Notes under the pieces: model-generated
Databases searched by the model: none
The model's input: the letters and a program-made list of their open reading frames with translations, nothing else
Told to the model about the DNA's origin: nothing
Assembly: GCA_041740355.1 (NCBI GenBank)
Contig: JBGSMD010000011.1
Coordinates: forward strand, 32,001 to 96,000
Length of the DNA stretch: 64,000 nt
Direction: 5' to 3'
Source: Bdellovibrionota bacterium
GTDB taxonomy: Bacteria; Bdellovibrionota_C; UBA2361; CALJRW01
Program-made: the position numbers and the translations under genes
Part shown: piece by piece, positions 51,803 through 54,007 of the stretch
Numbering within the stretch: position 1 is the stretch's first letter
Layout: each line of letters opens with the position of its first letter

Positions 51803-52354
51803 AATTATGTTGCAATCAATCCCCCCCCCCCTCACTCTTGCGGAGCTTCGGAGGATAATATTACATTATGCTTTAGGTACCCAACTCGTCGCCTCGCTAG
51901 GTGTCACTCAGCATTCCTCCTTTTTATTGTAGATCCAAAAAAAGGGAGCCATGAAGCTCCCTTTTTATTTTGTATAGGTAATTGTGTTGCGATCCATCCA
52001 CCTTCGCTAAAGCTTCGGCGGATAATCTTATTTCGATTGCTCGAAATAAAATTACATCATGCTTCGAGGACACCCAGCTTACGCTAGGTGTCACTCAGCA
52101 TTCGTAGTCCTTCGGACTACATCATGCCGCTGGGTGTCACCCGATTCTTGCGAATCGAGCTCCACTGGCGTCATGACTAATCATGACTTTCGCAACACCC
52201 AGCTCGTTACCTCGCTAGGTGTCACTTGTCATGATTACATCATGTTTGCTGTGTCACCCAGACACTTCGTGTCTAGGCTCCATGCGCAACATGATTACAT
52301 CATTCCGCTGGGTGTCACCCGATTCTTGCGAATCGAGCTCCACTCACGTCATGA
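51803..52354 (-). repeat. Array of ~60-bp hairpin units downstream of groEL, each ending in a copy of the groEL 3' end
   Basis: (T/C)TA(C)ATCAT copies start at 52295, 52235, 52177, 52117 and 52052, with a degenerate one at 51861; units 52295-52354 and 52117-52176 are 56/60 identical. Confidence 0.9.
51937..51966 (-). terminator. Rho-independent (bidirectional) terminator of groESL
   Basis: A7-GGGAGC-catgaa-GCTCCC-T5. Confidence 0.85.
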
Positions 52355-54007
52355 TTACATCATGCCGCCCATTCCACCCATACCGCCCATTCCACCCATG
52401 CCGCCCATACCAGCGCCAGCATTGTCATCAGACTTTGGTAGGTCACAGATAAGTGCGTCAGTAGTTAGGAGTAAGCTAGCAACAGAAGCAGCGTTTTCTA
52501 GAGCTGAACGAACAACTTTAGTTGGGTCAATTACACCAGCAGCAATTAGATCTTCGTAGATTCCAGTTGCAGCGTTGTAACCCCAAGCGCCTTTCTTCTC
52601 ACGTACAGTGTTCACAACTACTGCAGGCTCAGCACCAGCATTAGAAGAGATTGTACGAAGCGGAGCTTCACAAGCATTGCGGATAACTTTAACACCAAAC
52701 ATTTGCTCATCAGAAACTTTTAAAGAATCTAAAGAATCAATTGCTCTGATTAAAGCAACTCCACCACCAGGAACAATTCCTTCTTCCACAGCAGCACGAG
52801 TAGCATGAAGAGCATCTTCCACACGGGCTTTCTTCTCTTTCATCTCAATTTCTGTAGCAGCACCAACGTGAATTACAGCAACTCCACCAACTAACTTAGC
52901 TAGTCTTTCTTGTAATTTTTCACGATCGTAGTCAGAAGTTGTTTCTTCGATTTGAGCACGGATTTGACCAACACGAGCTTTGATTTCATCAGCAGAACCA
53001 GCACCATCAATAACTGTACAGTTATCTTTAGTGATCGCCATGCGCTTAGCAGTACCAAGATCAGCAAGAGTCAAGTTTTCTAACTTAACACCGATGTCTT
53101 CAGTCACACACTTCCCACCTGTAAGAATTGCGATGTCTTCAAGCATTGCTTTACGTCTGTCACCAAAACCAGGAGCTTTTACTGCGCAAACATTTAATGT
53201 TCCACGGATTTTGTTAACAACAAGAGTAGCTAATGCTTCACCTTCGATATCTTCAGCGATGATGCAAAGTGGCTTGCCAGTTTTAGCAACTTGCTCAAGA
53301 ACTGGAAGTAATTCTTTCATATTGCTGATTTTCTTTTCGTGAATAAGAATCAAACAATTTTCCAACTCAGCTTCCATTCTTTCTGGATTAGTAACGAAGT
53401 AAGGAGAAAGGTATCCACGGTCAAACTGCATTCCTTCAACTACATCAAGTGTAGTTTCTAGGCCTTTAGCTTCTTCCACAGTGATTACACCTTCTTTGCC
53501 AACTTTTTCCATTGCCGCAGCAATAATTTCACCGATTTCAGTGTCGCCATTTGCAGAAATAGTTCCTACTTTAGCGATATCACCTTTACCATTAGTTGGT
53601 TTGCTTTGAGCTTTAAGGTTTTCGATAACGCATTTAACAGCAGCATCAATTCCTCTTTTTAATGACATTGGGTCATGACCAGCAGCAACAAGTTTGTAAC
53701 CTTCACGATAAATCGCATCAGCTAAAACTGTAGCAGTAGTAGTCCCGTCACCAGCAACATCAGATGTTTTAGAAGCAGCTTCTTTAACCATCTGGGCACC
53801 CATATTCTGGAACTTATCTTCAAGATCAATTTCCTTAGCAACAGTAACACCATCTTTAGTGATTAATGGAGCTCCAAAACTCTTTTCAATTGCGACGTTA
53901 CGTCCACGAGGTCCCATTGTTACTTTAACTGCGTCAGCTAAAGTTTTAACACCTTTTAAAAGTTGTTCTCTGGCATCCAAGCCAAATCCAATTTTCTTTG
54001 CACTCAT
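52355..54007 (-). CDS. groL: Chaperonin GroEL
   Basis: [26 protein letters not shown]-repeat tail. Confidence 0.99.

Follow-up and report, generated by a model that had tools for sequence, protein, structure and literature searches.

A single-locus array of hairpin units carrying copies of the groEL 3′ end in a member of the Bdellovibrionota

The groEL locus

The chaperonin operon of a Bdellovibrionota bacterium (GenBank assembly GCA_041740355.1, contig JBGSMD010000011.1) is followed by an array of small hairpin units that carry copies of the last bases of groEL. The DNA analysed is a stretch of 64,000 nt of this contig (positions 32,001 to 96,000 of the forward strand), termed the window; positions without a contig name refer to it. 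The source assembly (3,272,965 bp, 97% complete) is labelled G000, a genome of the same genus G001, and the loci fetched for comparison carry L-numbers. The genes groES (54053-54355) and groEL (52355-54007) lie on the minus strand and form the usual operon. The 3′ end of groEL reads GGCATGATGTAA, and its last 14 nt are here called the tail. Five units (u1 to u5) of 60, 60, 58, 60 and 65 nt are found 3′ of the stop codon, at exactly the coordinates proposed in an earlier note on this DNA (Table 1). A sixth, decayed unit (u6), additional to the five claimed, is present further downstream.

A probable intrinsic terminator of groESL follows the five units. Its hairpin (51939-51966) was flagged by the program on the plus strand only, and the T run of the minus strand was read directly. 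The array is situated between the stop codon and this probable terminator and therefore should be a 3′ untranslated region (UTR).

Table 1. Features of the groEL locus (window positions) and RAYT-like open reading frames of the source assembly (contig positions)
Feature	Position	Strand	Basis
groEL coding sequence, 550 aa	52355-54007	-	Open reading frame list; Pfam Cpn60_TCP1 E=7.1e-75
Tail: copied last 14 nt of groEL	52355-52368	-	Sequence
u1, type A: tail-complementary 5′ arm, 9-bp GCAA-loop inner hairpin, 1-mismatch tail copy	52295-52354	-	Sequence, folds
u2, type A′: flanks of u1, inner hairpin swapped for 10-bp GAA-loop stem; tail copy CATGATGTAA	52235-52294	-	Sequence, folds
u3: 12-bp B-type hairpin inside loop of mini-hairpin TCATGAC ... 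CATGATTA	52177-52234	-	Sequence; RNA fold z=-8.5
u4, type A: 93% identical to u1; tail copy ends TAG	52117-52176	-	Alignment (family D2, 92% over 65 nt)
u5: GAA-loop hairpin (stem uses GTAG of u4 end), B-type GTAA-loop hairpin, tail copy	52052-52116	-	Sequence; RNA z=-6.7
14-bp GCAA-loop hairpin in centre of palindrome TAAT|ATTA	52023-52054	-	Inverted repeat I1
One copy of dispersed self-nesting ~30-nt palindromic repeat of G000; family distinct from units	51996-52026	-	Region query 395-425 matches many contigs; 34 hits in a further search; 49 copies vs 0 in shuffle
groESL intrinsic terminator (probable): GC-rich stem and T run	51937-51966	-	Read from sequence
u6: lone decayed B-type unit past terminator; tail copy CATAATGTAA	~51861-51925	-	Sequence; z=0.17 DNA, z=-2.5 RNA
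Second ATTATCC-type palindromic element, orthologous to element directly after groEL stop in G001	51806-51860	-	Alignment
RAYT-like open reading frame	C16:249390-250415		
RAYT-like open reading frame	C51:22114-23139		
RAYT-like open reading frame	C51:14138-15163		
RAYT-like open reading frame	C26, ~27.2-28.1 kb	-	
RAYT-like open reading frame	C63, last 1 kb of contig	-	

Anatomy of the units

The recurring sequence of the array is a copy of host coding sequence, as the earlier note had recognized. Units u1, u2, u4 and u5 end in tail copies with 1, 4, 1 and 2 mismatches in 14 nt; the end of u3 can be aligned with the tail only by an indel. In most units the copy spans the last 10-14 bases of the gene. 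Within the window, GTGACACCTAGC has 5 matches with ≤1 mismatch (0.08 expected) and GGGTGACAC occurs 3 times (0.08 expected). The motif TCATG begins u1 to u4, and u5 begins with a GAA-loop hairpin.

The units share a plan, in which a tail-complementary 5′ arm is followed by one or two inner hairpins with GCAA, GAA or GTAA loops and then by the tail copy as the 3′ arm. Folding shows each unit as a long imperfect hairpin, and in DNA folding u1 to u5 all beat their shuffled counterparts, with z = -2.6 to -6.4. The start of u4, TCATGACGCC, may be compared with the exact reverse complement of the tail, TCATGCCGCC. Stems differ between units yet pair, and the two stems that had been named as examples, with a GCAA and a GAA loop, are both recovered by folding.

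Two interior types, A and B, had been described and are indeed seen, but some modules are common to both. Type A units hold a perfect 10-nt reverse complement of the right arm of u5. There are 22 identical nt shared by u5 and u6 and 30 nt (90%) shared by u3 and u6, and u2 is 75% identical to u1. The mean column identity of the aligned units is 55%, with inner hairpins exchanged wholesale. Units u1 to u6 are a mosaic of a few modules. The junctions before the next hairpin read GTAA (three times), GTAG (once) and TTAG (once); these bases are also those of the groEL stop region itself. A side observation concerns the stop codons of the tail copies: where altered they became TAG, which is still a stop (u3, u4 at 52117-52119, and a Maricaulaceae unit at L259:243-329), although three cases may be due to chance.

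Stepwise build-up of the array at one place, as originally proposed, is upheld. The array was not called by Tandem Repeats Finder, which reported only a 9/18-nt period inside groEL. A simple slipped-strand tandem repeat was considered and rejected, given this silence and the 55% column identity; only u1 and u4 act as plain duplicates. The earlier note would have given up its reading for units that occur nowhere else and align as slipped-strand copies. The units are indeed absent elsewhere, although they are more than simple slipped-strand copies.

No known family was found in the array. With Rfam 15 no family was detected on the units of G000, L055, L101, L075, L021 and L018; the best match in the G000 region (E=0.61) lies outside the units. 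Three open reading frames overlap the array, two on the plus strand (166 and 104 aa) and one on the minus strand (56 aa), and none gave a Pfam family. A neighbouring open reading frame of 429 aa likewise gave no Pfam family, and its nearest Atlas clusters are hypothetical and show no nuclease or recombinase signal.

An assembly artefact, in which a repeat was collapsed or made chimeric when the metagenome-assembled genome (MAG) was built, is extremely improbable. In its favour, the ~40 nt identical between u1 and u4 make short-read graphs branch, and the Logan contigs of run X1 break within this stretch and nowhere else. On the other side, the region is rebuilt by three of these contigs, which overlap and show 0 differences, at similar depths of 7.2, 8.2 and 7.15 and with no indel or alternative joint within the array. 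As X1 is the probable source sample, the agreement is a check on the assembly and not an independent confirmation. Moreover, the units differ among themselves and so are not collapsed copies, and an orthologous B unit is present in G001. The array has no cover in the public runs X2, X3 and X12.

Comparison with a genome of the same genus

The groEL gene of G001 is 92.6% identical to that of G000, and no closer relative was found among 258 fetched loci. G001 does not have u1 to u4. Its groEL stop codon is followed by an 18-nt mini-hairpin (TCATGAC-CTG-CATGATTA) and a palindromic element; past the terminator come a single B-type unit with its tail copy and then another palindromic element. The flanks of u3 are exactly those of the G001 mini-hairpin, with the 3-nt loop replaced by a B core. 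The end of u3, CATGATTA, which matches the mini-hairpin exactly, may therefore not be a mutated groEL terminus. The comparison also suggests that hairpins grow from their loops.

Unit u5 has an orthologous unit in G001. From the comparison it is concluded that the B unit with its tail copy is older than the separation of G000 and G001 and that the A units are specific to G000.

Confinement to one locus

The earlier note interpreted the units as tiny non-autonomous mobile elements imported repeatedly into one target. This is not borne out by their distribution. The unit core GTGACACCYAGC has 5 occurrences in the whole assembly, and these are the five window matches at the groEL locus. A 621-nt query over the region, searched against 40 relatives, gave no match to u1 to u4; only G001 was matched past the coding end, at the u5-type unit (query 306-370, 85%) and at the terminator. 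Tail copies at unit spacing were found in 1 of 124 genomes of the phylum, namely G000 itself. G000 does not generally copy the ends of its genes: copies of the last 12 nt within ≤200 nt are present downstream of 10 of 2229 long open reading frames, vs 6 of 2243 in an upstream control.

Read as a miniature inverted-repeat transposable element (MITE), a unit would have the ends ATCATGNCG...CGNCATGAT (ATCATG...CATGAT), with GTA between units, where the right end is groEL's own tail. The end motifs have 41 and 27 occurrences genome-wide vs 30-40 in shuffled sequence, which is chance frequency. A parent insertion sequence with the unit ends was sought and rejected, as the only other motif pairs delimit two unrelated single-copy segments of 2.1 kb. 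No element-specific terminal repeats were detected beyond the copied gene end.

The proposal of an HUH/RAYT enzyme as driver is not borne out either. G000 encodes five RAYT-like open reading frames, but none is flanked by units or by a dispersed repeat. They belong to PF01797, are 321-341 aa in length and intact, and form two subfamilies; their best NCBIfam match, REP_Tyr_transpos, scores 59 bits against a cut-off of 80 bits. Each frame combines an N-terminal Y1/HUH domain with a C-terminal extension of ~190 aa. Units are absent from the 250-nt flanks of all five (only 22 nt are available upstream of the C63 frame, at the contig end), and no dispersed repeat was found ≤3 kb from them.

The polar, CRISPR-like order that had been suggested is likewise not seen. 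Tail divergence along the array runs 1, 4, indel, 1 and 2 mismatches, with u1 and u4 93% identical. The lack of a gradient argues against leader-proximal, CRISPR-like growth.

A genome-wide search of G000 for short direct repeats at 35-95 nt spacing gave 15 regions, none with a k-mer set matching the groEL units. Three of these regions besides the groEL array were inspected, of which those in C30 and C39 read as short-period repeats of the coding type and that in C44 as a repeat without hairpins. The latter (C44:2250-2600) consists of ~100-nt units rich in GGTCAAAG and AAGCTC, with no obvious hairpins. In a scan of G000 for hairpin clusters, eight clusters with ≥4 hairpins were found and groEL ranked top.

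Similar units behind groEL in other lineages

A 20-nt junction composed of the groEL end and TCATG is found in at least 119 genome and at least 120 metagenome stretches from many phyla. Of 223 such loci with enough flank, 9 have 1-3 further copies of the 15-nt tail within 500 nt, vs 0 of 209 in a control interval of 500-1000 nt; the set was restricted to the stop/TCATG junction and drawn from lower-bound counts, and 9/223 is thus not a prevalence. The carriers are Maricaulis MAGs, an alphaproteobacterial MAG, a Parvibaculaceae MAG and a TARA contig that share one unit, Methylophilales LSUCC0135, two metagenome contigs and a contig binned as Nanohaloarchaea. The last (L112) has a gene whose end resembles the GGM tail of bacterial groEL, and behind it a 56-nt unit that ends in a tail copy; it may represent a binning error or a transferred gene. 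In Methylophilales LSUCC0135, a match to the anti-hemB small RNA of Rfam is found at L021:6087-6171 with 66 bits, above the gathering score, ~250 nt past the groEL unit and on the opposite strand.

Maricaulis and Oceanicaulis provide both empty and filled sites. The site is cleanly empty in L020, L032, L106, L113, L129 and L093, and L033, L101 and L108 have a unit of 74-86 nt exactly at the stop codon. Two identical tandem units are present in L055, and larger repeats that include the terminator are found in L018, L246, L063 and L259. The Maricaulis unit opens with a left arm that equals, apart from an inserted AAA, the reverse complement of groEL's last 16 nt. This arm is separated from the tail copy by a 5-bp GAAA hairpin and then one of 9 bp, and the predicted fold of the unit is a three-way junction. 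In all five Maricaulis genomes (5/5) the 75-nt unit is found full length only at groEL. No match to a Y1 transposase was obtained in any of the five Maricaulis genomes with equivalent units.

Among 81 genomes sampled evenly from the family, 21 have the exact tail, and clustered extra copies are present in 3 of the 21, one being the starting genome. The tail copies track the synonymous variant resident in the gene, GGC in L101 and GGA in L108, as is expected if tail and copies recombine. Of 19 consensus pairs in nine alphaproteobacterial units, 3 display compensatory double changes, and broken pairs are few.

Strand bias and RNA structure

RNA folding predicts the sense strand to be more stable than the antisense strand in all 12 regions tested. 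The energies for the G000 array are -158.3 kcal/mol sense vs -114.3 kcal/mol antisense, with 15 vs 3 G-U pairs, and for u1 alone they are -28.4 vs -18.4. The whole 450-nt 3′ UTR gives -224.3 (z=-18.5) in the sense and -160.5 kcal/mol (z=-9.1) in the antisense direction. As G+T amounts to 51%, base composition is not the cause of the difference. The minimum-energy structure of the whole UTR joins the real tail to the start of u2, with u1 enclosed between them. The array has the two characteristics of a 3′-UTR structural hairpin, location between stop codon and probable terminator and a strand-specific predicted structure of the RNA type.

The B-type units differ according to location. Those inside the presumed transcript are intact (RNA z=-8.5 for u3 and -6.7 for u5), and those behind the terminator are decayed (z=-2.5 for u6 and -0.09 for the G001 unit). 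With two units on either side, the contrast is suggestive. Retention as a sense-strand RNA structure would be the most economical reading of the strand bias in these predicted folds.

Neighbouring palindromic elements

Other palindromic sequences are present next to the units. The TAAT|ATTA site, filled in the array by a 14-bp hairpin, is empty behind u6, and two other short fillers (13 nt) occupy it in G001. The ~30-nt dispersed repeat, with core CCGCCGAAGC...GCGAAGGTGG, has 49 copies in G000 (≤3 substitutions) vs 0 in a shuffled genome. As with the groEL hairpins, growth seems to occur at the loop, where one copy is often nested inside another; examples of its sites are on C5, C6 and C63, and it is also found in L002 (G001) and L010. 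In G001 it is nested, in addition, within one palindromic element of the groEL region. In a second family of the order, a cognate of this repeat is found behind groEL. A stretch of 11 consecutive G at 51821-51831, within the second palindromic element, could be prone to slippage or to sequencing error.

Origin and retention of the array

The favoured interpretation, held with moderate confidence, is that of a 3′-UTR hairpin array that was born from groEL's own end by template switching and unequal recombination and was then kept as an RNA structure. Birth of the units at the locus is concluded from sequence comparison, because their arms are copies of the tail and because they are restricted to one locus in two unrelated lineages. 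The first inverted and direct tail copies would have come from template switching during replication at small palindromes of the tail (CATG, TCATGA). This first event might be a miniature direct-inverted-direct duplication, produced by two successive switches at a short palindrome. Unit number would then have been altered by unequal recombination or slippage between tail copies, which would also keep the copies similar to the real tail; such exchange would explain the identical tandem units, the mosaic of modules and the concerted tail variants. Hairpins would grow from their loops. The units would be retained because stable sense-strand RNA hairpins in the groESL 3′ UTR protect or shape the 3′ end of a very abundant mRNA.

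Several points weigh against this interpretation. The mechanism of birth is one that we infer. The perfect 10-nt inverted copy in the type A units differs by only one transition from a direct copy of the B left arm, and so is not decisive. Concerning transcription, the RNA run X12 covers only groEL coding sequence from relatives. There is one close relative (G001), the contrast between the inside and the outside of the transcript is one of two units against two, and related genomes are not independent samples. In L018, L246, L063, L170 and L259 some units are situated behind a duplicated terminator; these fit a process at the DNA level and not an RNA role for those copies. The sense bias could also come from single-stranded non-template DNA. 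Finally, the filled and empty sites of Maricaulis look like insertion, G000 has RAYT-like genes together with a mobile-looking nested repeat, and GTAA or GTAG next to a hairpin, as at the junctions, corresponds to the tag cut by RAYT in repetitive extragenic palindromes (REPs) (PMC3733652).

These last points are the strength of a different explanation, in which tiny non-autonomous elements insert site-specifically at the groEL stop codon by means of an HUH/RAYT-type or other single-strand enzyme, duplicating the target and producing a polar array. The junctions, GTAA, GTAG or TTAG and then a palindrome, resemble those of GTAG-tagged REPs (PMC3733652), and five RAYT-like frames are encoded by G000. 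In Maricaulis the stop codon is precisely where sites are filled or empty, YPAL is described as duplicating 3-26 bp of target beside dyad symmetry (PMC2229807), and other hairpins of G000 insert into hairpin loops. Nevertheless, the units are found at no other locus of G000 and nowhere else in the five Maricaulis genomes, and their arms are copies of the target itself instead of element-specific ends. No divergence gradient runs along the array, the HUH frames have neither units nor dispersed repeats within 3 kb, and a Y1 transposase is present in 0 of 5 Maricaulis genomes. Site-specific insertion is thus considered decidedly unlikely, even if an HUH enzyme may act locally in G000. An origin at the locus with no RNA role is also judged unlikely, although a little less so. 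Here the repetitive, GGM-coding tail with its CATG palindromes would be a hot spot for slippage and template switching, and the hairpins a harmless by-product. Units behind the terminator in some alphaproteobacteria are consistent with this, as is the patchy presence of the units (3 of 21 genomes in one family, 1 of 124 in the phylum of G000); template switching can, moreover, keep the arms of a palindrome matched without selection (PMC8794818). A neutral by-product does not readily account for the strong and consistent sense-strand advantage of the predicted folds with their many G-U pairs, for the GNRA and GNA loops on the sense strand, or for the decay of the two B units behind the terminator when the two within the transcript are intact.

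At the other extreme, the array might be a translation-coupled RNA switch. The arm that follows the stop codon would have two possible partners, a decoy tail downstream and the real tail, the latter being accessible only while it is clear of ribosomes, and the fold of the UTR would report whether groEL is translated to its end. Read base by base, 7 of 8 bases in the 5′ arm of u1 pair with the real tail, and 6 of 8 with the 3′ arm of the same unit; the whole-UTR fold has the real tail and the u2 start paired around u1, and unpaired stop codons are retained in the copies as TAA or TAG. However, recent duplication and recombination explain the tail copies and stop codons equally well, and units behind terminators do not fit a switch, which makes this a very unlikely explanation. 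In a broader and quite doubtful version, the groEL end repeatedly spawns functional modules and the 3′ UTR senses translation to the end and sets its own stability, so that a self-templated riboregulator would have arisen convergently in four or more named bacterial lineages.

Relation to known repeat systems

The proposed birth of the array from groEL's own end would set it apart from the repeat families that it most resembles. REPs stabilize upstream mRNA. They are short palindromes situated just 3′ of coding regions, are often transcribed, form arrays, can supply a stop codon with their ends and carry a GTAG-type tag (PMC3733652). The groEL units share with the REP/BIME-RAYT system the position 3′ of a gene, the arrays and the stop codon; their junctions recall the tag beside a hairpin but are also the groEL stop region itself. 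However, REPs and BIMEs have one conserved sequence in many dispersed copies and are associated with RAYT, whereas the groEL units are limited to one locus, have arms copied from the gene end and differ in their inner hairpins, and no link to the RAYT-like genes was found for them.

A second group consists of MITE-like repeats at stop codons, which are 60-170 nt in length, fold end to end, lie in one orientation, are co-transcribed and influence mRNA stability (PMC2229807). The groEL units resemble ERIC/IRU, YPAL/RU-2 and Correia elements in abutting the stop codon and folding end to end. YPAL, furthermore, is reported to duplicate as much as 26 bp of its target at sites of dyad symmetry (PMC2229807). 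Unlike the groEL and Maricaulis units, which are found only at groEL and have no detected terminal repeats of their own, the ERIC, YPAL and Correia families are multi-copy and spread over many genes.

Template-switch mutations offer a parallel for the proposed mechanism. They copy a reverse complement in one step, create perfect stems, can repair stems, and are both a source and a keeper of RNA hairpins (PMC8794818). Inverted copy-number variants are attributed to template switching between leading and lagging strands (PMC10766183). The order of tail, reverse-complement tail and tail matches the logic of direct-inverted-direct duplications. The cases described in these papers are single RNA-gene hairpins or large eukaryotic rearrangements, and not a repeated gene-end array in a bacterial 3′ UTR.

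A comparable chain of hairpins exists within G000 itself, in the trailer of a tRNA-Phe gene (C63:108146-108600), which fell below the thresholds of the hairpin-cluster scan. Hairpins with GNA and GNRA loops touch one another, and the terminal TGGGC of the gene recurs after units; the RNA fold is -166.3 in the sense vs -152.5 in the antisense direction. It has in common with the groEL array a hairpin chain and recurring gene-end bases behind a highly expressed gene. It differs in its sequences, in belonging to an RNA gene and in having no stop codon.

CRISPR and integron arrays are similar in that a short recurring sequence lies between variable segments of similar length at a single locus. In the groEL array, by contrast, the 'spacers' are interrelated (u1 and u4, 93%), there is no polarity and the junctions have no core of the GTTRRRY type; cas and intI genes were not searched for. 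At the level of titles and abstracts, no description of groEL-end repeat units was found in the literature. The array differs from the dispersed families of stop-codon hairpins in being single-locus and self-templated, and is kin to 3′-UTR palindromic repeats and template-switch hairpins.

Significance

Small hairpin repeats behind genes are usually classed as selfish mobile DNA, as with REPs and MITEs. The groEL units are instead made from the gene's own end, stay there, and recur at groEL in distant bacteria. They carry a warning, in that filled and empty sites together with long 'target duplications' are insufficient for calling an element mobile. Function would be directly testable in culturable Maricaulis strains with and without units. 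If the template-switch origin is true, the repetitive, palindromic tail of groEL would be a natural hot spot, and the arrays would show the birth of structured 3′ UTRs and perhaps of the seeds of REP-like families.

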